From a phage: a stretch of DNA of 64,000 nt. Within the stretch, counting starts at the first letter, position 1. Each line of letters starts with the position of its first letter. Position numbers and translations under genes: made by a program. This document shows, one piece after another, positions 367 to 45,997 of this stretch. A model generated the notes under the pieces. The model was not told the DNA's origin. It was given only the letters and a program-made list of their open reading frames with translations, and did not search any database. The stretch is from the sequence record PZ386969.1. One strand, written 5' to 3'.

Positions 367-708
367 ATGAAACTCAATAAGATTCTTCTGGTGTGCGCTC
401 TGGCTTTCTCTACCACTGCGTGTTCCACCCTTCTGGACGTTGCGTCTACTGTAGACCTTGACGCGCCGACGTTCACCAATGAGCAGGCTGTGTCCAAGAT
501 GGAAGACACCATTAAGGCGCATGCGGCGTTGGATAACGCCACCCCAGGTCCGCTCCAAACTGTCTGCAACTATGACGATTCCATCCAGGAAGACGAAACT
601 TACCACTGCATCACCTACGTGAAGCAGGCCTCCGTCGTTCTGTATGCAGATTGTACCGAAGAACAGTGTGTTGCTACAGGCTACGATAAAGTTGAGGAAG
701 ACAAATGA
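367..708 (+). CDS. Putative lipoprotein
   Basis: ATG at 367 preceded by AGGTGA; N-terminal hydrophobic signal ending in a lipobox-like ...STTAC; track start 358 is a GTG in the same frame. Confidence 0.55.
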   Translation: MKLNKILLVCALAFSTTACSTLLDVASTVDLDAPTFTNEQAVSKMEDTIKAHAALDNATPGPLQTVCNYDDSIQEDETYHCITYVKQASVVLYADCTEEQCVATGYDKVEEDK

Positions 709-1484
709 ACAACCTGGTTTGTATCTATGATATGAAATCAAAGGTCGGTGGCCTGTATCGCGTCCTCGTGGATGTTGACCTGACGTTGGTCGACAGCCTC
801 TCCCCTTGGGTGCAGTGGTTTAACGAAGAGAACATCGCCGCCGCTGCTATCGCTACGGGGGAACATAAGTCATACCAGTTCCAGCCGATTACCAAAGAGT
901 GTTATATGTCCCATGCTGGCGACCTGGCTATTCTGATGCGTGAACGTGCGCATCCGGCGTGGCTATACCATGAAGTCCAATTGGGGATGCACAAACAACG
1001 TGTGCCAAGCGGTAACGATCCTATGGACTGGTGGCGTCGCCCTGACTTGTACGCCAAGATGAACCCGCTCCCCGGCGCTTACGAGTTCCTGGTAAATCTG
1101 AAGGATATCTTGCTTGAAGATTTCGACAATGTTGAATTCATCGCAGTGTCCAAGTGCGAGCCGGAACACGAGCGCAGCAAGCGTCAGTTTGTCTATGACA
1201 AGTTCCCTGGTATCTTCAACGGGTTTGTCAGCACCGACGAAAAGCATCTGCTGGCTGGCGATGTCCTGATTGATGACAATCCGAAGTATGTCGAGCCGTG
1301 CGGCCTGAACAACATCTTTGTCATCTTTGTTCCTCAGGGCAATTATGAAAAACTGGATCTTTCGAATTCGGAAGACATGCTTTATATTAAACCAGTAGAA
1401 GGCCAGAATCACTTCGACTTCCTGAATTACAATATTGTTGAAGTGGTTAACCGCCTGATTAGTCATTATCAATACGTCCGATAG
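705..1484 (+). CDS. HAD-superfamily phosphatase (5'-nucleotidase / polynucleotide 3'-phosphatase-like)
   Basis: DxDxT motif (VDVDLTLVD) near N-terminus and downstream GDVLIDDN motif typical of HAD phosphatases; ATGA start/stop overlap with upstream gene. Confidence 0.6.
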   Translation: MNNLVCIYDMKSKVGGLYRVLVDVDLTLVDSLSPWVQWFNEENIAAAAIATGEHKSYQFQPITKECYMSHAGDLAILMRERAHPAWLYHEVQLGMHKQRVPSGNDPMDWWRRPDLYAKMNPLPGAYEFLVNLKDILLEDFDNVEFIAVSKCEPEHERSKRQFVYDKFPGIFNGFVSTDEKHLLAGDVLIDDNPKYVEPCGLNNIFVIFVPQGNYEKLDLSNSEDMLYIKPVEGQNHFDFLNYNIVEVVNRLISHYQYVR

Positions 1485-1493
1485 GAGGACATC

Positions 1494-1799
1494 GTGCAAG
1501 AACAATCCAAGTTTGGGGAAACCCCAGACAAGCGTTCCGGTGATAGCGACATGGATAGCGTGATTAACCATGTGAACAACTTCATTCGCCAGCAGGAGAC
1601 TCCAACTCCTATCGGTGCAGCCAAGGCTCTTCATGATGTACTGGTGAAGATCGGCCAGCGCTCTGAAGCGGATGAAATCTTCTATAACTTTGACGACCAG
1701 TATAAAGTTAAGTTTGAAGAGAATGGCCGCCCACAGGTTGCTGTGTTCTGGGCACCTTGGTTGGGCGGCGTGAGCTGGCGTATTGAGGATGCTGTGTAA
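1494..1799 (+). CDS. Hypothetical protein
   Basis: GTG start preceded by AGGAGG; stop overlaps next start. Confidence 0.45.
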   Translation: MQEQSKFGETPDKRSGDSDMDSVINHVNNFIRQQETPTPIGAAKALHDVLVKIGQRSEADEIFYNFDDQYKVKFEENGRPQVAVFWAPWLGGVSWRIEDAV

Positions 1800-2704
1800 T
1801 GGCAAAAATTATCGTAGTGAAAGGAACCAGCGGTACGGGTAAGGGCACCCGTGTTGTCCAGTTCATCGAATGGCTGCGCACTAAGCTGGAGCCTACCGAA
1901 CTGACCTACACCGTTGGTGACAAGACTCGCCCGTTTGGCCTGAAGTTCGGAGAGCTGAAGTTAATCTTCGTTGGGCAGTACACCGTGTCTAACAAATCCG
2001 GTCTGGCTTCTTGGACGTCGATGGACGCCATTCATGCTGCTACAGGCTCAGGCGATATTGCTCGTGATCTAATCAAGTGCTGGTTGGTTCAGGGATACAC
2101 TCTGGTGTGTGAGGGCGAACCTCTCATGCTATCGGACAAATGGCGTCCTGAATGGATGTTCAAGAACTATCCGATTGAATCATTGGCGCTGCTGTACTTT
2201 GCGTACCCCGACCGCTATCAGTACGATGCTCGTATCCGTGGTCGATCTGGTAAAGAAGCAGGGAACTCCGGCTGGTCGCGCAACGAATCTTACTACAAGG
2301 AGTTTGAGAAGTCGAAGGCCGAAATGCTGGCACTGGGGTGGAACGTTTTGGCAGATGTGTACAGCGGACAGGATGTTGAGTACATGAAACCTTCTCCAAA
2401 TGAGTGGGAAATGGACCCACGCAGCGAGCTGGCAGTCATGCCGTTTGATGCCCCTCTTTGGGTTGTTGGGGATGCTATCGCTTATCAGATGGATATCGGT
2501 GTGGTCGACCTTGACATCAAAGACTTCTATGCTTTCTGTGAAACCAATCCGATGACTCGTGAAATCGGCGGCCAAGATCCTTTGGCGCACAGAGTCCCTG
2601 AGAAGCCGCAGAAGGCATCCAAAACTAAAACCAAGGCGAGCGCCCAGCCAGAAGCAACGAAGGCAGCGTCGCGCTCTCTCCTTGACCTGATGAAGAAGGG
2701 GTGA
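1799..2704 (+). CDS. P-loop NTPase / kinase-like protein
   Basis: Walker A VVKGTSGTGKGT at N-terminus; lysine-rich C-terminal tail; paralogue-like to 45264-45935. Confidence 0.55.
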   Translation: MAKIIVVKGTSGTGKGTRVVQFIEWLRTKLEPTELTYTVGDKTRPFGLKFGELKLIFVGQYTVSNKSGLASWTSMDAIHAATGSGDIARDLIKCWLVQGYTLVCEGEPLMLSDKWRPEWMFKNYPIESLALLYFAYPDRYQYDARIRGRSGKEAGNSGWSRNESYYKEFEKSKAEMLALGWNVLADVYSGQDVEYMKPSPNEWEMDPRSELAVMPFDAPLWVVGDAIAYQMDIGVVDLDIKDFYAFCETNPMTREIGGQDPLAHRVPEKPQKASKTKTKASAQPEATKAASRSLLDLMKKG

Positions 2705-2706
2705 TC

Positions 2707-2904
2707 ATGAAACGGTTGTCTAATTATCTGTTGTTCATTGGTCTGGTTATGGCAGCCGTTTCAATGTGTACTGCCCTAGCCTATCATTTCACCCCTCTGG
2801 ACTTAACAACCTCAGAGAAGTTGAACGTGACTGTGATGTACTGTATTGGCGCGGTGATGTCTATCGGCGCTGCTGGTTACAAAATATTCAAGGAACCAAA
2901 ATGA
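2707..2904 (+). CDS. Small membrane protein
   Basis: ATG at 2707 in frame with track ORF 2701; two hydrophobic segments. Confidence 0.4.
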   Translation: MKRLSNYLLFIGLVMAAVSMCTALAYHFTPLDLTTSEKLNVTVMYCIGAVMSIGAAGYKIFKEPK

Positions 2905-3278
2905 AAATTCAAATCCCTCGCGATGCTGTGGCTGTTGCGATTGACTACACCGGAAACGCCAAGCACATTACTGCCGTGCGCCTGATTCCTGAAAAGAACT
3001 GCGTCATCCCTCAGTTCCAGCTGAATGCCAATCCGTCGTCCAAAGACTTCGGTAAGTGGTTGCAGGCTGCTCCGTTCCGTACCCAGACGAATGCCCAGAT
3101 GTTCATCTCGGGTAAGACCCACACTGTAGCCCGTCTTTGGTTTGTGACCGCCGACCGCCGCTTCATCGATATGTGGGAACGTCCGATGGGGTTCGTGAAG
3201 CCGGAAGATATTCAGCTGGCTCCTGAGCCTGAAGCTGTGGCTCCTGAAGAGGAAGCGAAAGATGCATCATTTATCTAA
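2901..3278 (+). CDS. Hypothetical protein
   Basis: ATG at 2901 in ATGA overlap with previous stop, preceded by AGGAA; same frame as track ORF 2766. Confidence 0.45.
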   Translation: MKIQIPRDAVAVAIDYTGNAKHITAVRLIPEKNCVIPQFQLNANPSSKDFGKWLQAAPFRTQTNAQMFISGKTHTVARLWFVTADRRFIDMWERPMGFVKPEDIQLAPEPEAVAPEEEAKDASFI

Positions 3279-4500
3279 AATGCCGACGGGTTATACGCCT
3301 CCGGCTGAATGGAAGTACCCGATTGACCTGGCTGTTGATTATCGCAAGCCTGAGAATCGCATGTACCTGCTCAAGGCTTGGGTGGAGGCGCTGTCCTACA
3401 CAGAAGAGCACAACCAGCAGATGCGTCTGATGGACTATGCGATCGAAGTCACTGAAGGCATCAGCCTCGAACAGAAAGTCGAGCGCAAGATCTGGATGGC
3501 ATTCCTGTGGGGTTGTTGCTATAACGCCGTCGGACCGTGGACGATCTACAGTGAGTTCCCTGTGCCGCCTCAGTCTAAGGAAGAGATGCAGCGCTTCTCT
3601 GATTGGTATAATCTGAACTTTGAACGCATGCGATTCGATACCGACTGTCGCTACCGCAAGTCCAAGATGATTCCGTGTGTTCAGTCCTATATTGACTGGC
3701 TGGCTGGCCGTACTCAATATGACGCTTTCCGTGGGATGTTGGTGTGCATCGATAAGACAGAACAATTCACCCAGCTGTGGGACACGGCGATGTCCTGGAA
3801 ATACTTCGGTCGCCTGAGCGCCTGGAACTTCCTGGAAGCCCTGAACATGGTCTTCGGGAACGAATACACCATTGACGTCCCTGGCTTCATGCTGCGTGAT
3901 CGTGATGGAAGCGAGTCCAACCGTAATGGCGCGGCGTTCTTGTCCAACCGTGACGATTGGGTGACTAAACACGGGAAGAAAAAGATCAACGGTTGTCCTA
4001 TCACGGATGAAGAGTGTGACATCCTTGAGGCCGACCTTGAGCAGGCGTTCCAGGATTGTGTGGCTGAGTTCGGGCACCTGACGTTCATCAACCGCCTGAA
4101 CTTTGAAACCTCCGGTGCTTGTTGGCTGAAGAAATTCTTCCGACTGAAGAATACCCGTTACATCGGGTGGGACGCAGAGCGTACCTGGGATGAGATAGAC
4201 TACATGGAACGCGTCTGGCCTGAATACTCCTGCGCAGCGCTCTGGGAAGCCCGTTCGCTCTGGCTGCCAGATACCCTGTTATGTGAAAAGGCTCCTGCAG
4301 GGCACGTTCCAGGCGTCCAGAAGTGGAAGATGCCTGTATTCTTTGAGACTGGTGTTCCTCTGCATATCTGGCACCTGCAAAAGGGTACGCGCTGGGAACC
4401 ATCCGAGGTATGTACGAACCTGAAGATGCCTGTGCGCAAGGTTGAGGACAAGCAGCCGCGCAAACATAGCGTCAACCTCATGACACTCTTGAAACGCTGA
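3262..4500 (+). CDS. Hypothetical protein (412 aa)
   Basis: Long ORF, start preceded by GAGGAAG; no family recognised by eye. Confidence 0.6.
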   Translation: MHHLSKMPTGYTPPAEWKYPIDLAVDYRKPENRMYLLKAWVEALSYTEEHNQQMRLMDYAIEVTEGISLEQKVERKIWMAFLWGCCYNAVGPWTIYSEFPVPPQSKEEMQRFSDWYNLNFERMRFDTDCRYRKSKMIPCVQSYIDWLAGRTQYDAFRGMLVCIDKTEQFTQLWDTAMSWKYFGRLSAWNFLEALNMVFGNEYTIDVPGFMLRDRDGSESNRNGAAFLSNRDDWVTKHGKKKINGCPITDEECDILEADLEQAFQDCVAEFGHLTFINRLNFETSGACWLKKFFRLKNTRYIGWDAERTWDEIDYMERVWPEYSCAALWEARSLWLPDTLLCEKAPAGHVPGVQKWKMPVFFETGVPLHIWHLQKGTRWEPSEVCTNLKMPVRKVEDKQPRKHSVNLMTLLKR

Positions 4501-25693: not shown

Positions 25694-26008
25694 ATGACCC
25701 CATTAAAAGAAATGTATGAGCGCCTGGCTGAACTGCAGGCGAAGGAAAAGCGCTTCTCAGAAGAAGAGTCTGAAATCTCCGAGCTGAACAACCTGATTGC
25801 CACTCGCGAGAAGTACCTGCAGCGCTACATTAATCACCCGCCGCGCATGGTAGACCGCGTCAGCACTATCATGGACCTGGATGAAGTTACTCCTGGTAAA
25901 GAAATCATTGTCAGGGAAGTCCACCAGATGGTCGCCATGGGTCAGATCTTTGGTCGTGCAGACCAAGACGACATGATCTTCCTCCTTGAAAAGAAACTGG
26001 TGATGTGA
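25694..26008 (+). CDS. Hypothetical protein
   Basis: RBS AAGAGGAA; ATGA overlap with dCMP deaminase. Confidence 0.45.
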   Translation: MTPLKEMYERLAELQAKEKRFSEEESEISELNNLIATREKYLQRYINHPPRMVDRVSTIMDLDEVTPGKEIIVREVHQMVAMGQIFGRADQDDMIFLLEKKLVM

Positions 26009-26514
26009 TGGCTATCAAACCCCGTATGTTATTTGCGCATATGCGCTCGGCTCATGCATACGCCCTGTCCAGCTATGCCCAGCGCCTGAAGGTCGGCTGT
26101 GTTATCGTTGACCCGCGTGTTGACCAGCCCCTGTCTATCGGTTGGAACGGGACTGCTCCTGGCGCTCCTAATGTCTGTGAGAAGGAAGTAGACGGTCAAC
26201 TGGTATCGGTGGGTGTTATCCACGCCGAGGAGAATGCTCTGAGCAAACTCCCCCAGCACACCGAAGACTGTTGTGGCCTGGTGATGTTTGTCACTCATAG
26301 CCCATGCCCAGAGTGCACCCGTCGTATTATCGACAGTGGCAAGATCGCTAAAGTGTTCTATGACCGACCATATCGTATCATAGACGGCATTATTGAAATG
26401 CTGAATGCTGGGATTGAAGTATATCGCATGGTCGATCAGTTTGTTGTAGTCCAGCATTCTGTGAAGAACGGCGAACTGGTATCCACCCCTGTTTTAGTGA
26501 ACCCTGACAAATAA
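26005..26514 (+). CDS. dCMP deaminase
   Basis: Zinc-binding cytidine/deoxycytidylate deaminase motifs HAEENAL and PCPECTRRI. Confidence 0.8.
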   Translation: MMAIKPRMLFAHMRSAHAYALSSYAQRLKVGCVIVDPRVDQPLSIGWNGTAPGAPNVCEKEVDGQLVSVGVIHAEENALSKLPQHTEDCCGLVMFVTHSPCPECTRRIIDSGKIAKVFYDRPYRIIDGIIEMLNAGIEVYRMVDQFVVVQHSVKNGELVSTPVLVNPDK

Positions 26515-36176: not shown

Positions 36177-36785
36177 TTATTTGCTCAGGCTGGCGAGGTA
36201 GTTGTCGGCTTCGATAGACGACGGGCTGTTGGCGGAGTAGCTCGAATCAGCGATTTCGGTTTCGCGCAGGATGGCATCGATATCGATGGTGGTCATACCA
36301 GCGGCATAATCGATATCTTCAGGGAGCACCAGACCCAGGTCGTTCGTCTCTTTCTGAACACGAACCAGCTCGAGATTGGACTTGACTTCGTCCAGTTTGT
36401 CACCCAGCTGGATGATCGCACCGTTCAGTTTGTCGCTGCTTGCTTCGATGTCCTTCACCTGAGCCAACAGGGCTTCACCGATACGGCGGCGATGCAGAAT
36501 AATCAGGGCGTCGGCGCGGGTTGGTGTGACACCACGAGCGATGGCGTCCTTCAGAACTTCTTCGCGCTTGGCGGCTTCACTTAGGTTCTGTTCTGCGGTC
36601 TTCTTCAGCTTGACGCCGTTGCGGACGTTGGTGACACGGGCTTCCTCCAGGCGACGGATTTCGTCAGACAGCTTGCGAGCAGCCAGGTTCAGGCGCTTTT
36701 CGGTGTCGGTCAGTTTATCCAGACCTGCGGTGACGTTAGCTTCAACAGTGGTGAAGATGCGTTTCAGTAAGTTTTTCAGTGACAT
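36177..36785 (-). CDS. Coiled-coil protein (PspA/IM30-like, tentative)
   Basis: Long helical heptad-like sequence; PspA family suggested by eye only. Confidence 0.35.
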   Translation of the reverse strand: MSLKNLLKRIFTTVEANVTAGLDKLTDTEKRLNLAARKLSDEIRRLEEARVTNVRNGVKLKKTAEQNLSEAAKREEVLKDAIARGVTPTRADALIILHRRRIGEALLAQVKDIEASSDKLNGAIIQLGDKLDEVKSNLELVRVQKETNDLGLVLPEDIDYAAGMTTIDIDAILRETEIADSSYSANSPSSIEADNYLASLSK

Positions 36786-41511: not shown

Positions 41512-42574
41512 GGTCCATTTGCTCCAGCATGTTAGCAGGCATAACAGTACCGTTAGAAACACCGAACATTTTCTTCACGTCATCGGCGAAGTTGACATTC
41601 TCCAGCAGCGGATACCAGAAATCATCACCCATCTGACGCTTCTGATATTTCTTTTCCTTCTCAGGATCGAAACCGCCCTTGGCTGTACGCACATACCAGC
41701 CGGAAGACGGCATATCAACATAACCCAGAGCACGAGCGATCTCAAGCAGGCCGCTCCAGCGATCAATACCACCGTTGTACAGTACCGTGACAGGGAGCTT
41801 GGCTTTTTCTTTGACATGGCGGCCTTTCATGATGCTTATGTTGAAGTTCCAGCCCAGCAGATCTTTGTCTTCCTTCACCTGAGAACGGGTGATAAACCAG
41901 ATCAAGTTGGAGGATAAGAAGCCCTGTTTGCCGCCTTTGATGTTAGGCTCGGCATATTGGTTGCCGATCTCATCGTAATAGGAGTTGATCCAAACACACA
42001 CGAGATTTTTGCTGTTGATTTCGGGAGTCATGACACGCCAGAAGCTGTTGAGGGCACGGGCGCGGGTCATGTCTTGAGTGTCGTTCCCTTTGATCGCATC
42101 TTCAACTTCCTTGGTGGAGGGAAGTTGGCTGATAGAGTCGATGAAGATTATAACATGGTCGCCTTTCTTGACTTCCTGTAGGATCTGTAGCAATCGGATC
42201 TTGGTCTGTTCAACGTTGTCGATCGGTACGTACAGGACGCGATCCATGTCAATGCCCATAGAGGTCCAGTAATCAGCGTTGGCACCCTTTTCTGAGTCCG
42301 CAAAGACGCAGATAGCATCAGGGAACTTGTCCATGTACGCCTTGACGTCCACCAGACCGAACATCGTTTTGAAGGTACGGGAATCACCCACCATCATCTT
42401 GATACCGGAGATCAGGCCGCCGTCAATACGCCCAGACCATGCGATGTCGATCAGGGGAATACCAGTAGAACAGATGATAGACGGTTCCAGAGCGTCTGAT
42501 TGGGACAGCACTGAAGCCTGGTCATCGTGTTTCTTAGCAACCTTCAGCATGCGGTCCATTAATGAACTGGCCAT
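41489..42574 (-). CDS. uvsX: UvsX recombinase (RecA-like)
   Basis: Extended by-eye similarity to remembered T4 UvsX across the RecA core (FIDSISQL, MTRA). Confidence 0.85.
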   Translation of the reverse strand: MASSLMDRMLKVAKKHDDQASVLSQSDALEPSIICSTGIPLIDIAWSGRIDGGLISGIKMMVGDSRTFKTMFGLVDVKAYMDKFPDAICVFADSEKGANADYWTSMGIDMDRVLYVPIDNVEQTKIRLLQILQEVKKGDHVIIFIDSISQLPSTKEVEDAIKGNDTQDMTRARALNSFWRVMTPEINSKNLVCVWINSYYDEIGNQYAEPNIKGGKQGFLSSNLIWFITRSQVKEDKDLLGWNFNISIMKGRHVKEKAKLPVTVLYNGGIDRWSGLLEIARALGYVDMPSSGWYVRTAKGGFDPEKEKKYQKRQMGDDFWYPLLENVNFADDVKKMFGVSNGTVMPANMLEQMDHVINTSE

Positions 42575-43101
42575 TTCACTTCCTCTTTGTTGTTAATCGT
42601 CGTTAGTAAGTCTACACCCATAACCTTCTGGGACAAAATGTTAACCGCCTCTTGGATGCTCTTCAGGGACATTATCTCAACAAGTGACGATGCGTCATTA
42701 TGCCGGTCGGTTAGGTACATATTGCGCAGATTGTTGTAGTTCGTGCGGTTGATGCACGCAGTGTTCAGTGCTATATTCAGGATATACATCATCTGTTCAA
42801 TGGTTATATCCTTTGGCATAGCGTGGATGTAATAGATCGATCCTTCAAAATAGACGTCTACCAGTTCATCTGGTATCTTGATACCACCACTGGCATACTC
42901 TTCGATCATTCTGAACAGAGACTCTGGTTGCTCGCTGGCGATCTTATGCGTAACAGTCGCCGAAAGACCGTCGCCCGGTTTAACAGGCCTGTTGTATTCA
43001 GTAAGGAATACATTATGGCCGCCGCCGATGATGTGCTCGGCGAATTTGGAGGATGCCTGAGCAGCGTTCTCCGCATGGTATGAAACGACGACTGTAAACA
43101 T
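42559..43101 (-). CDS. Hypothetical protein
   Basis: ORF between uvsX and the nucleotide-metabolism cluster. Confidence 0.45.
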   Translation of the reverse strand: MFTVVVSYHAENAAQASSKFAEHIIGGGHNVFLTEYNRPVKPGDGLSATVTHKIASEQPESLFRMIEEYASGGIKIPDELVDVYFEGSIYYIHAMPKDITIEQMMYILNIALNTACINRTNYNNLRNMYLTDRHNDASSLVEIMSLKSIQEAVNILSQKVMGVDLLTTINNKEEVKWPVH

Positions 43102-43655
43102 TAGAACTCCAGGGTCAGAGGGGTTTCTGCGGACTTGTCGTAATCCGCGCCACCAGAAGCACGCAGACGATTGCGATCGTTCTTGCGTTTGTGCGCCAGC
43201 ATGTAAGTCTCAATGTCGATCTCCATATAAGAACACGCAGACGACAGGAAGAACATGAGAGTCTCAACGCAAGGATCGTTCATGAATTGCCCAAGGCGGT
43301 ACGTAACATTGCGATGCCCTACAACACCCAAAGCAGATGGGGTGAATTCGCGATTACTGAGGACTTCAAATTCTTCTTCGATCTCACCTTTGGTTCGGTC
43401 CACAAGGATGAAGCACAACATGAAGTGTACCACGTCCACCAGTTCATAAACTGCGTTCGTATGGTCAAACCCGATGTCGTTGCCATAGACCTTCCAGTCA
43501 CGGGTGGTTTCATCAAGGAACTCTGCCCACTCACGATAGATGGAGTTGATGACTGCGTTCTGACTCCATACATTCTTCCACTCTTCCCCAAAATAGGCCA
43601 CGTTGGTGACCTTTTGGAGTTCGAGCAGGCTTTTGATATGTCCTGCTGTGATCAT
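43101..43655 (-). CDS. Nucleoside triphosphate pyrophosphohydrolase (T4 gp56 dCTPase/dUTPase-like)
   Basis: YELVDVVHFMLCFILV parallels remembered T4 gp56 FELVDIFHFVLNMFV. Confidence 0.5.
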   Translation of the reverse strand: MITAGHIKSLLELQKVTNVAYFGEEWKNVWSQNAVINSIYREWAEFLDETTRDWKVYGNDIGFDHTNAVYELVDVVHFMLCFILVDRTKGEIEEEFEVLSNREFTPSALGVVGHRNVTYRLGQFMNDPCVETLMFFLSSACSYMEIDIETYMLAHKRKNDRNRLRASGGADYDKSAETPLTLEF

Positions 43656-44221
43656 TTACGTTCTCCGTAGAATTTAACGAACGGTTCCCAACCATCAAAT
43701 GGATTGAGGAATTCGTAGTCCACTTTCATTTGGTCAATGAAAGCCTCTATATCGTCCTCTATGATACCAGCACGGTCGGCCTTTGAAATACGGGTGATAG
43801 GACATTTCGTACTCAGCGCCCATTCATATTCCTGAGGGGTACGCAGATCGCTCACGATATAATGGACGTGGGGGTTCTGCTCTACCAGAGGAAGCTGGAA
43901 GCGCTTGAAGAATGCCAGGAACAGATCGGGTTGTACGTAACGCAAGCCCGTATCGCTGCCTAGATGAAGCCAGATCTGCCGTGGAGTTAAGCCCTTGGGG
44001 TTATCAGGGTGCACGTAAGGAACGTCCTTCACGGCATCCTCTACCTCCGCTGGGAGCCATGGGTAGATGTAGTTGGCCACACGGCGCAGTTCATCTGAGA
44101 ACGAAAGGCGCTGGATGTCCATATCACCCTGTAGTTGGTGATAGCTGATGAGGGACTCCAAACAGAAGTCCTTACCGGAGCGTTTGCGCCCCGTAAAGAA
44201 TTCAAGATTTGGGTACATCAT
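43652..44221 (-). CDS. Deoxynucleoside monophosphate kinase (T4 gp1-like)
   Basis: FTGRKRSGKD and YIVSDLRTPQEYEWA match T4 gp1 motifs (LSGVKRSGKD, YIVPDTRQDHEMDAA). Confidence 0.6.
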   Translation of the reverse strand: MMYPNLEFFTGRKRSGKDFCLESLISYHQLQGDMDIQRLSFSDELRRVANYIYPWLPAEVEDAVKDVPYVHPDNPKGLTPRQIWLHLGSDTGLRYVQPDLFLAFFKRFQLPLVEQNPHVHYIVSDLRTPQEYEWALSTKCPITRISKADRAGIIEDDIEAFIDQMKVDYEFLNPFDGWEPFVKFYGERK

Positions 44222-45264
44222 ACTACACCTTCCAGGAACTTAGGATCAACGATCTTGCGGTCAACCGGAGAATGGGTGAGCGCGGTGTTCAAGCCATGAT
44301 CCTGAATCAGGTCCAGGTTAATGAGCTTTTCGTTCAGTTTGCAGTGCAGACAGTACGCCATCTGTACAATCAGGCCGCGATCCGCATCGTATTCCTTCAG
44401 GTGAGCAACCACAGTTTCCCACGGGCTACCGATATCACAGTGATGAAGCACACCAGTGAACAGATTGCGGATATGGTTCTGGTTGGTCACGTTCGTGAAG
44501 TGGATCATGGAGTTGATGAACCCAGCTTCTACTTTGGTGTCCTTCGTGATCTTGCCCAGCTGCTTCTGGCTGACTTCATTGTTGTAGTAATGAAGATTGT
44601 TAGAGAATAGCTTGTACTGACCGACATCAACATCTAACACCCGAGCAATCACTTCCTGAAGAATAGAGAACTCAATGAAGTTGATTGAACTCATCCCCCA
44701 CAGAACATCCTGTGAGCGATTGATGACCGTCAGGTTCAGACGACCTTCAACGATGGCGAACAACAGAGCCAGGTTACACACCATGTCCTTAGTCTTTGCT
44801 TCGCCGCTCTCGCTGAACTTCGCCAGACCAGCATCCGAATCTAGAGCCGGGTCATAGATGGTGAGGTACGCCTGACGAGTGTTTGGGTTCTTGCGCAGGC
44901 GGTTGATAACGCTATCCAGCTGGCCATGGGCGTACAGACGCGGACCATAAGCAGCTCGCCATGTTACCCCATCATCCGAAAAGTTAGCAGCGCGAGGCAA
45001 TACGCGTGACAGGAACTTTATGTCGTTGCGGCCTGACAACACCCAGAAGGTCTCGCCGATGGCAGCGATAGCCGATGAGTTGCGACCTTCAACGGAGAGC
45101 CAGCGGTCACGAATATCGGAAACAGTGATAGTCACACCATCAAGGAAGCGGGTGCTATCAGTATTGATTTCAGCATTACCAGGATCAGATTCGATCCCGA
45201 ATTCACGGATAGCCAAGACAGCCTGCTTCAGCATGTCATTGTTGTTAATTGCTTTGATTTCCAT
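44218..45264 (-). CDS. Pyrimidine deoxynucleotide hydroxymethylase (ThyA superfamily, T4 gp42-like)
   Basis: ThyA-fold motifs RQAYLTIYDP and NRSQDV; catalytic Cys in MVCN context as in T4 dCMP hydroxymethylase (FMCTN), not the canonical PCH. Confidence 0.65.
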   Translation of the reverse strand: MEIKAINNNDMLKQAVLAIREFGIESDPGNAEINTDSTRFLDGVTITVSDIRDRWLSVEGRNSSAIAAIGETFWVLSGRNDIKFLSRVLPRAANFSDDGVTWRAAYGPRLYAHGQLDSVINRLRKNPNTRQAYLTIYDPALDSDAGLAKFSESGEAKTKDMVCNLALLFAIVEGRLNLTVINRSQDVLWGMSSINFIEFSILQEVIARVLDVDVGQYKLFSNNLHYYNNEVSQKQLGKITKDTKVEAGFINSMIHFTNVTNQNHIRNLFTGVLHHCDIGSPWETVVAHLKEYDADRGLIVQMAYCLHCKLNEKLINLDLIQDHGLNTALTHSPVDRKIVDPKFLEGVV

Positions 45265-45935
45265 CAGATACTCCCAAAATCACGACAGAGGAATGCCATC
45301 ACAGCCTGGTCTACCGTTAGGCCGTGAGACTTCATCATACCCGCAGCCACCGTAGGGAACAAGTCTTTATGTCGTTGACGATGGTCATGAACTCTCTCCC
45401 ACTTCTCGACCACCAGACTTTCATTGAAGTCCACACCGCCGTTACGTGATTTAACGCGGGTGATACACGTTTCAAGAGGAGTGTCCATAAAGAGCACAAC
45501 CAATTCACGTGGTGGGCGTGTCAGACGGGGGATCCAAGAACTCAATAATGTGGATGGAATGATACCTTCGAAAATCACATCATATTTCAAGTATTCTGGT
45601 TGGTCAGCAATAGACAACGCGAACAACATCTGCTCAGTGTCCTTCAGGGAATCAACCCCCTTGGACTTCGACTTGTCATATTTACCGATACAGACCACGT
45701 TGAACGAAGGACAGACAGTCAGCATGACCTTGCCATTATGGGTCACGACATACGCCTGAGGATCCCTCTCCGCCAGCTGAGACGGCACAGTGGATTTACC
45801 GCTACCATTGGAGCCTTTGACGTAGTAGATTTGCCCTCGTGCTGGGTAGATCCCCTTTACGACGGGTGGTTTAAAGAATGTGTGGACGGGGCGCTTCATC
45901 AACCCCTTCAGGGAGTAGGACATAAACTGCTCCAA
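45264..45935 (-). CDS. P-loop kinase-like protein
   Basis: Walker A YVKGSNGSGKST; several aligned blocks with the 1799-2704 protein. Confidence 0.55.
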   Translation of the reverse strand: MEQFMSYSLKGLMKRPVHTFFKPPVVKGIYPARGQIYYVKGSNGSGKSTVPSQLAERDPQAYVVTHNGKVMLTVCPSFNVVCIGKYDKSKSKGVDSLKDTEQMLFALSIADQPEYLKYDVIFEGIIPSTLLSSWIPRLTRPPRELVVLFMDTPLETCITRVKSRNGGVDFNESLVVEKWERVHDHRQRHKDLFPTVAAGMMKSHGLTVDQAVMAFLCRDFGSI

Positions 45936-45968
45936 TAAACAAAAGGAGCTGCTATTATAGCAGCCCCT
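45936..45968 (-). terminator. Rho-independent terminator (- strand)
   Basis: Stem GCTGCTAT/ATAGCAGC followed on the - strand by TTTTGTTTATTGG. Confidence 0.55.
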
Positions 45969-45997
45969 TCATCTTTTGAACAGTTTCTGAACTTAAA

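Follow-up and report, generated by a model that had tools for sequence, protein, structure and literature searches.

A probable ViI-type pathway of thymidine hypermodification in an Agtrevirus-like phage

A 64-kb stretch of phage DNA (64,000 nucleotides; sequence record PZ386969.1; hereafter the window) carries on its (-) strand four contiguous genes of nucleotide modification, among them a homologue of the thymidylate synthase ThyA and an adjoining kinase gene. We conclude that this region very probably represents the core of a thymidine hypermodification pathway of the type described in phage ViI, here in an Agtrevirus-like phage, with 5-(2-aminoethoxy)methyl-deoxyuridine (5-NeOmdU) as the predicted product. 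In this pathway, 5-hydroxymethyluracil (hmU) would be an intermediate and not the end product, because the kinase encoded next to the ThyA homologue is predicted to phosphorylate the base in polymerised DNA, and a second kinase and a transferase are encoded elsewhere in the window.

A sequence-only reading of the window had described the four genes as a nucleotide-modification module with a ThyA-superfamily hydroxymethylase, and this description holds: the open reading frames (ORFs) are present and all four have strong profile matches (Table 1). The same reading had left a choice between 5-hydroxymethylcytosine (hmC), as in T4, and hmU, as in SPO1 or ViI; the hmU option of the ViI type stands, with hmU kept only as an intermediate, and hmC falls away. 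The dCMP deaminase that it had placed at 26005-26514 is borne out by a Pfam match, and its block at 43101-45935 can be retained, but the pathway reaches as far as 705-4500 and the first kinase gene most likely starts at 45923 rather than 45935.

Table 1. Coordinates and supporting matches of the predicted pathway genes and of one neighbouring gene.
Feature	Position	Strand	ORF length	Supporting matches
Candidate NT5C-like deoxypyrimidine 5'-nucleotidase	705-1484	+		Pfam NT5C 9.9e-9; phrog_2643 (5'-3' deoxyribonucleotidase) 6e-5; 76% identity to ViI Vi01_194
Predicted 5-hmdU DNA kinase 2, ViI gp243 orthologue; Walker A GTSGTGKG	1799-2704	+		PF18747 HMUD2 6.3e-151; 81% identity to gp243
Predicted amino acid:DNA transferase, aGPT-Pplase clade 2, ViI gp247 orthologue	3262-4500	+		PF18724 ADDT 4.5e-60; 89% identity to gp247
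Predicted dCMP deaminase, supplying dUMP	26005-26514	+		Pfam dCMP_cyt_deam_1 (PF00383) 4.3e-16; NCBIfam ComEB 2e-13; annotated so in ZQ1
Phage ACT-like domain protein	42559-43101	-	180 aa	PF24021 1.7e-79; start overlaps NTPase stop (TAATG); same position in ViI (Vi01_057c)
Predicted dimeric all-alpha dUTPase-family NTP pyrophosphohydrolase (NTPase)	43101-43655	-	184 aa	Pfam dUTPase_2 1.8e-8; phrog_173 1.3e-39; 61% identity to ViI Vi01_058c
Predicted dNMP kinase, T4 gp1 family; P-loop GRKRSGKD	43652-44221	-	189 aa	phrog_139 1.2e-47; 90% identity to ViI dnk
Predicted dUMP hydroxymethylase, ThyA superfamily; thymidylate synthase core plus ~110-aa C-terminal helical domain	44218-45264	-	348 aa	Pfam Thymidylat_synt (PF00303) 1.1e-15; phrog_3676 2.4e-183; 77% identity to ViI Vi01_060c
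Predicted 5-hmdU DNA kinase 1, ViI gp67 orthologue; Walker A GSNGSGKS	45264-45923 (listed ORF to TTG 45935)	-	223 aa (listed ORF)	PF18748 HMUDK_HMUD1 1.7e-108; 88% identity to gp67

Evidence for a ViI-Type Gene Set

Phage ViI (Kuttervirus; NC_015296; Lee et al. 2018 PNAS, Lee et al. 2021 NAR) has the block in the same context and gene order: the gp41 helicase, a small ORF, uvsX, an ACT-like gene, the dUTPase-family NTPase, dnk, the thyA-like gene and Vi01_061c. The last of these (YP_004327432; L002:13204-13866) is gp67, the kinase (HMUDK) that phosphorylates 5-hydroxymethyldeoxyuridine (5-hmdU) in DNA (Lee et al. 2021, PMC8989533). The four window genes are orthologous to and syntenic with ViI 058c-061c at 61-90% amino acid identity, the NTPase being the most diverged component. 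The first window kinase, which had been read simply as a P-loop kinase, does contain a P-loop; it would not be a generic nucleotide kinase but a 5-hmdU DNA kinase, and we regard its PF18748 match as decisive for the identity of the module.

Pfam scans of the 5' end of the window located, ~40 kb from the four-gene block, the NT5C-like gene, a second DNA kinase gene and the transferase gene. ViI possesses the same second cluster (pol, NT5C-like, HMUD2, ADDT), and the Pfam families PF18748, PF18747 and PF18724 are shared, with catalytic motifs conserved. Each of the three kinases, namely both DNA kinases and the dNMP kinase, has an intact Walker A motif. In the transferase, the invariant Cys341 lies in the sequence DTLLCEK and aligns with ETILCK in the enzyme of PaMx11 type, for which Cys247 has been published as the nucleophile; through this alignment, Cys341 is the putative catalytic residue. 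Ten of the eleven cysteines of ViI gp247 are kept, Cys341 included, and the exchange of gp247 Cys113 for Ser at residue 113 is probably irrelevant to catalysis.

In ViI, the dUMP hydroxymethyltransferase is orf66 and the other pathway genes are gp67, gp243, gp247, gp226 and gp160. These five proteins reconstitute 5-NeOmdU on hmU DNA, with gp247 acting as serine:DNA transferase and gp226 as a pyridoxal phosphate (PLP) decarboxylase (PMC5889632, PMC8989533). A tblastn search of the 64-kb window gave no homologue of gp226 or of gp160 (aGPT-Pplase1). Escherichia phage vB_EcoM-ZQ1 (hereafter ZQ1) has orthologues of both (91% and 82% amino acid identity, respectively), in parts of its genome that lie outside the window's coverage, and the closest relatives therefore appear to carry the full ViI gene set. 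Kabanova et al. 2019 ascribed the same set to 'all Ackermannviridae', listing six ORFs of phage PP35, and the GenBank record of RPN242 already names a clade-2 aGPT-Pplase, a P-loop kinase 2 and a 5'(3')-deoxyribonucleotidase, the last under the region aligned to 705-1484. ViI differs in belonging to Cvivirinae rather than Aglimvirinae; the GC content of the window is ~49-50%.

The gene set has been published for ViI, CBA120, AG3 and PP35 (2011, 2018, 2019, 2021, and a 2024 review); it is ordinary for this phage family and holds no new biology. The main value of recognising it is correct annotation of a hydroxymethylase mislabelled 'thymidylate synthase' and of a DNA kinase mislabelled, among other names, 'terminase small subunit'. 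Recognising the block also predicts 5-NeOmdU in the DNA of this phage, where it would affect restriction digestion, nanopore and other sequencing, sensitivity to host defences, and use in phage therapy or biocontrol.

Proposed Pathway

We propose a route of seven steps. Steps (i) to (iv) are drawn from orthology, family membership and the physiology of CBA120, ViI and SPO1; steps (v) to (vii) have been shown biochemically for the ViI orthologues and are carried over to the window proteins.

(i) The dCMP deaminase would convert dCMP to dUMP.

(ii) The ThyA homologue would add its Cys163 to C6 of dUMP, accept a methylene group from methylenetetrahydrofolate and add water, giving 5-hmdUMP.

(iii) The dNMP kinase would convert 5-hmdUMP to 5-hmdUDP, and a host NDP kinase would complete 5-hmdUTP.

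(iv) The phage polymerase would incorporate 5-hmdUTP instead of dTTP, while the NTPase and the NT5C-like nucleotidase probably exclude dUTP and thymidine nucleotides from the pool.

(v) The two DNA kinases would phosphorylate the hydroxymethyl group of hmU in DNA to form 5-phosphomethyl-dU.

(vi) The transferase, through Cys341, would form an exocyclic methylene that is attacked by the side-chain oxygen of serine, replacing the phosphate and yielding O-seryl-thymidine.

(vii) A PLP decarboxylase encoded outside the window would remove CO2 to leave 5-NeOmdU at a fraction of T positions, where it would protect the DNA from many restriction enzymes.

The End Product

5-NeOmdU has been shown in the virion DNA of ViI, CBA120 and phiHS2, and its extent varies by genus, from ~40% of T positions in ViI (PMC5889632, PMC8989533) to 16.4% in phiHS2. 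This variation can be cited in favour of the rival explanation that survives best, namely that the pathway ends at 5-hmU, as in SPO1, or in a product other than 5-NeOmdU in the Aglimvirinae lineage. It gains further from the position of the PLP decarboxylase outside the window and from the variability of the second kinase among close relatives, and our literature search found no nucleoside analysis for any Aglimvirinae phage (Agtrevirus or Limestonevirus). We nevertheless consider it improbable: the two DNA kinases retain their Walker A motifs and the transferase its Cys341, all three being intact, the transferase closely resembles the serine-specific gp247 of ViI, and the closest relative of the window has the gp226 orthologue.

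Several points weigh against 5-NeOmdU as the product and against parts of the route leading to it, beginning with the negative result of that literature search. For PP35, the modification was explicitly left undetermined in 2019 (Kabanova et al. 2019). The PLP decarboxylase and aGPT-Pplase1 of this genome would lie outside the window, their presence being taken from relatives. We found no published enzyme assay of a ViI-type ThyA homologue, which the literature describes as predicted. The closest solved structure to the ThyA homologue, that of MilA, belongs to a cytosine-specific enzyme, and overall similarity alone therefore does not give the base; our assignment of the base draws mainly on one residue and on orthology. 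To cast the two hydrolases as dTTPase and dTMPase, finally, is conjecture.

According to published data, ViI-like phages first make DNA in which hmU fully replaces T, yet 60-84% of virion T positions are plain T. One speculative idea, which we regard as rather unlikely though worth stating, is that the two paralogous DNA kinases mark different hmU sites for two fates: conversion to 5-NeOmdU, and on-DNA reduction to thymine, perhaps via aGPT-Pplase1. This route would then be enforced by the NT5C-like enzyme as the dTMPase and by the dUTPase-family enzyme as the dTTPase. A more modest alternative to this idea would be an Aglimvirinae end product other than that of ViI.

The ThyA Homologue: Hydroxymethylase or Methylase

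The enzyme on which the pathway depends is the ThyA homologue, whose sequence matches a GenBank protein named from phage YX22 at 100% identity. Public records label the protein 'thymidylate synthase' (TS), and if the label were right, the enzyme would make dTMP and the module would boost canonical dTTP, as does td of T4. Such a role is in keeping with the TS fold and with core catalytic residues common to TS, including the equivalent of Asn177. We judge it very unlikely on several grounds. The protein reaches at most 57.8 bits against the NCBIfam TS equivalog models, whose cutoffs of 108-427 bits it fails throughout; the score of 57.8 bits compares with a cutoff of 327 bits. His147 of TS is replaced by Asn, and the folate-contacting Trp80 and Trp83 by Ala and Phe, in a 126-sequence MAFFT alignment that includes the 120 database homologues counted here. 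The gene adjoins, and by its overlapping codons is translationally coupled with, that of a kinase predicted to act on 5-hmdU in DNA. CBA120, which has an orthologue, showed no incorporation of 3H-thymidine (Kutter et al. 2011), and ViI DNA contains hmU-derived bases.

The predicted structure bears this out. The AlphaFold2 prediction, for which 40 sequences were aligned, is of high confidence (predicted local distance difference test, pLDDT, 93.9; predicted template-modelling score, pTM, 0.93) and consists of a TS core and a helical C-terminal domain of ~110 residues, which resembles that of MilA and stands where TS has a short C-terminal tail that closes the active site. In a Foldseek search of the PDB, the CMP hydroxymethylase MilA came first, with an alignment that spans the full length (E 3.8e-19, 351 columns, TM 0.71/0.77), whereas thymidylate synthases aligned over the ~265 columns of the core only (TMq ~0.55). 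By sequence the two rank in the same order, with MilA at 1.4e-17 and the best TS at 3.5e-9. Neither a second ThyA-family gene nor a canonical TS was found in the window or in 92% of ZQ1. We infer that the ThyA homologue makes 5-hmdUMP rather than dTMP.

The sequence-only reading had pointed to a catalytic Cys in an MVCN context, like that of T4 dCMP hydroxymethylase and not the PCH of true TS. The Cys is indeed Cys163, in KDMVCNLAL, and the context is not PCH; the comparison with T4 is a loose one, as gp42 of that phage reads FMCT, and the constant of the family is Cys-Asn (112 of the 120 homologues). The absence of Pro before the Cys is not diagnostic of a hydroxymethylase, because this Pro is present in 69 of the 120 family members, and where the window protein reads VCN, enzymes of the SPO1 and PaMx11 types have PCN.

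The ThyA Homologue: Which Base

Although the earlier reading held the modified base not to be resolvable by eye, it can be assigned to thymine/uracil. We aligned six sequences: E. coli ThyA, the window protein, the ViI protein, and those of PAKlein3 (PaMx11-like), CampHawk (SPO1-like) and T4 (gp42). The catalytic set is invariant among them (Glu58, Tyr94, Arg126, Cys146, Arg166, Ser167, Asp169, His207 and Tyr209 in E. coli numbering). At the position of TS Asn177, the window protein has Asn195 (SSINF), as Asn is found in all hmU-lineage enzymes aligned, and T4 gp42 has Asp179 (FRNDY), the published determinant of dCMP versus dUMP use (PMC6400193). The catalytic Cys and the specificity Asn are both invariant in 120 of 120 homologues. 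In the larger MAFFT alignment, T4 gp42, an outlier, slipped by one column at Glu58 and Asn177, and its positions are taken from the six-sequence alignment and from published structural equivalences.

Family relationships agree with the residue. The ThyA homologue scores best, by a wide margin, with phrog_3676, then with phrog_5131 (7.6e-59), which is the best family of CampHawk (2.5e-136), and below that with phrog_160 (1.5e-25), which is the best family of T4 gp42 (3.4e-67). In tblastn searches of phages, it matched Maribacter, Vibrio, PaMx/M6-type Pseudomonas and SPO1-like phages at 33-41% identity, and T4-type td only marginally (22% identity, ~1e-5). In the work of Kutter et al. 2011, the 'TS' of CBA120, ViI and AG3 fell into one cluster with hmdU synthases, namely those of phiW-14, SPO1 and YuA. 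From Asn195, membership of the SPO1/PaMx11-type family, the presence of a dCMP deaminase and an adjacent hmU kinase, and this phylogeny, we assign the ThyA homologue as a predicted dUMP, not dCMP, hydroxymethylase. Of the checks on the 44218-45264 product that the sequence-only reading had proposed, the profile search agrees with this assignment and the structure prediction with a hydroxymethylase; the protein has no PCH active site and does not group with bona fide TS.

The least probable explanation, a T4-type dCMP hydroxymethylase with cytosine replaced by 5-hmC, could appeal to the Pro missing as in gp42, to the cytosine nucleotides on which MilA acts and to companion genes in the gp56 and gp1 families, but we set it aside almost entirely, given an Asn in place of the Asp179 required for dCMP use, the weak similarity to phrog_160, the lack of any tblastn match of T4 gp42 in the window at E<0.05, an encoded dCMP deaminase that consumes dCMP, the absence of hmdC substitution in CBA120 (Kutter et al. 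2011), and the absence of a glucosyltransferase among those window ORFs that were scanned.

Long contigs that bear bacterial names also encode hydroxymethylase homologues, with 30-46% identity and all with the Cys and the Asn: Klebsiella pneumoniae (a 1.66-Mb contig, 36 member sequences), Paenarthrobacter (a 4.5-Mb contig), Rhizobium rhizogenes and Herbiconiux. Such genes may belong to prophages or to hmU systems of cells. Forms of 470-590 aa are found in metagenomes.

Nucleotide-Pool Enzymes

The NTPase and the dNMP kinase had been called 'gp56-like' and 'gp1-like'. The labels are sound at the level of PHROG families, membership of which is shown by families common to the window and T4 proteins: T4 gp56 also belongs to phrog_173 (5.8e-39) and T4 gp1 to phrog_139 (1.8e-65). 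They do not extend to pairwise similarity, where direct BLASTP to T4 gp56 and gp1 retrieved one short motif each and was otherwise negligible; for gp56 this motif spans 17 aa (E=0.005), and the P-loops of the kinases read GRKRSGKD in the window and GVKRSGKD in T4. A phmmer search of PDB sequences with the dNMP kinase gave nothing at E<=1, and the best PDB match of the NTPase is 1w2y, a 229-aa dUTPase.

The dNMP kinase is predicted to convert 5-hmdUMP to 5-hmdUDP. The NTPase would be a dUTPase and possibly also a dTTPase, the latter role having been suggested by Kutter et al. 2011, and the NT5C-like protein is a candidate dTMPase. According to Lee et al. 2021, hmU phages act before replication with a dUMP hydroxymethylase, a dTTPase, a dTMPase, a dCMP deaminase and a dNMP kinase (PMC8989533); in this set, the dTTPase could plausibly be the NTPase and the dTMPase the NT5C-like protein.

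The Two DNA Kinases and Their Annotation

The start of the first kinase gene is most likely the ATG at 45923, because GGAG lies 7 nt upstream, the TTG at 45935 falls inside that ribosome-binding site (RBS), and ViI gp67 starts at the equivalent Met. The two DNA kinases are only distantly paralogous, with 24% identity across 168 aa (E=0.001), and the retention of both across the family suggests non-redundant roles. Kinase activity has been published for ViI gp243 (PMC8989533), and both ViI kinases phosphorylate hmU DNA in vitro.

Annotation of the first kinase varies among databases. The RefSeq records of ViI, Ag3, P46FS4, SKML-39 and MK-13, as well as PHROG 800, call it 'terminase small subunit', which is a propagated mis-annotation; other records give 'putative kinase' or 'hypothetical protein', and that of ZQ1 shortens the gene to 525 nt.

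The second kinase region is more variable. In ZQ1, the second kinase is only 47-48% identical in amino acids to the window protein and is encoded in the 3' part of an ORF that carries the label of a homing endonuclease (L005:22876-24474). A221, RPN242, AV101, Ag3 and P46FS4 match the second kinase of the window, with ~0.7-0.9 kb of extra sequence in the cluster that is absent from the window; several of these records annotate a SegD-like or homing endonuclease in it. The modification gene here seems to sit in a hotspot of exchange driven by endonucleases.

Comparison with Other Known Systems

Beyond ViI, four systems share parts of the proposed machinery. SPO1-type enzymes (CampHawk, Okubovirus) have the same ThyA core, the Cys-Asn motif, the uracil-reading Asn and a long C-terminal extension, with 34% identity in the core (E ~1e-29), and they likewise work with a dCMP deaminase and a dNMP kinase. 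They differ in that hmU is the final base and that neither a 5-hmdU DNA kinase nor a transferase is present.

The T4 system of gp42, gp56 and gp1 follows the same logic, in which an NTPase clears the pool, a hydroxymethylase of the ThyA family and a dNMP kinase follow, and decoration comes after replication; the NTPase and kinase share PHROG families with those of the window, in a similar position downstream of gp41 and uvsX. Apart from the specificity residue and the context of the Cys, T4 differs in that gp42 lacks the C-terminal domain and in that decoration proceeds by glucosylation rather than by phosphorylation and amino-acid transfer.

MilA of Streptomyces rimofaciens (PDB 5jnh, 5b6d) is the best match by sequence and, by structure, the only one that extends over the full length and takes in the C-terminal helical domain, but it acts on cytosine ribonucleotides in antibiotic synthesis, carries Asp at the specificity position, and has an identity of ~20%.

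[quoted passage not shown] They differ in a glycine-using transferase, in downstream enzymes (a flavin adenine dinucleotide lyase, an acetyltransferase or a radical S-adenosylmethionine enzyme), and in an NTPase and nucleotide kinase that are non-homologous. We considered whether the PAKlein3 locus repeats this module with its gene order unchanged and rejected the idea, the NTPase, nucleotide kinase and 296-aa ORF of PAKlein3 being non-homologous to the proteins of the window in pairwise and PHROG comparisons. What the two share is limited to the ThyA-like gene, the HMUDK, which in PAKlein3 is encoded by another ORF (L009:2532-3101), and the transferase.

Source Phage and Genomic Setting

The 2.8-kb block is 98.6% identical in nucleotides to that of ZQ1, 96-98% to RPN242, YX22, LHE287, A221 and AV101, ~92% to Shigella phage Ag3 and 90% to Dickeya Limestone-type phages. 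It matched 252 phage records, the named relatives being all Ackermannviridae (Aglimvirinae), and no record in the phage collection (release August 2025) was identical across the whole block. By these identities, the window derives from an Agtrevirus-like Ackermannviridae phage, another isolate or assembly within a well-sampled group.

Stops and starts overlap along the block (TGATG, ATGATG, AATGA and TAATG junctions), which indicates that it forms one translationally coupled operon, running on into the ACT-like gene and uvsX. The ACT-like protein is a possible member of the modification pathway. ACT domains usually bind small-molecule effectors, and the protein may therefore regulate the nucleotide enzymes.

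Consensus scans for promoters and terminators remained at background (12 seen against 8.1 expected, and 5 seen against 6.1 expected, respectively), and Rfam and tRNA scans of the whole window gave no matches. The only feature that stands out in the promoter and terminator scans is a 13-bp GC-rich stem-loop, GAAGGGGCTGCTATAATAGCAGCTCCTTT, followed by TGTTTATT, at 45942-45970 (-), between the stop of the upstream gene (45998) and the RBS of the first kinase gene. At the head of the modification operon, it may act as a partial terminator or serve in the processing or stability of the RNA. Amid the replication genes, the window also encodes a 202-aa protein of the PspA/IM30 membrane-stress family (36177-36785, (-) strand; PF04012, 4.9e-11), which is annotated as hypothetical in ZQ1.

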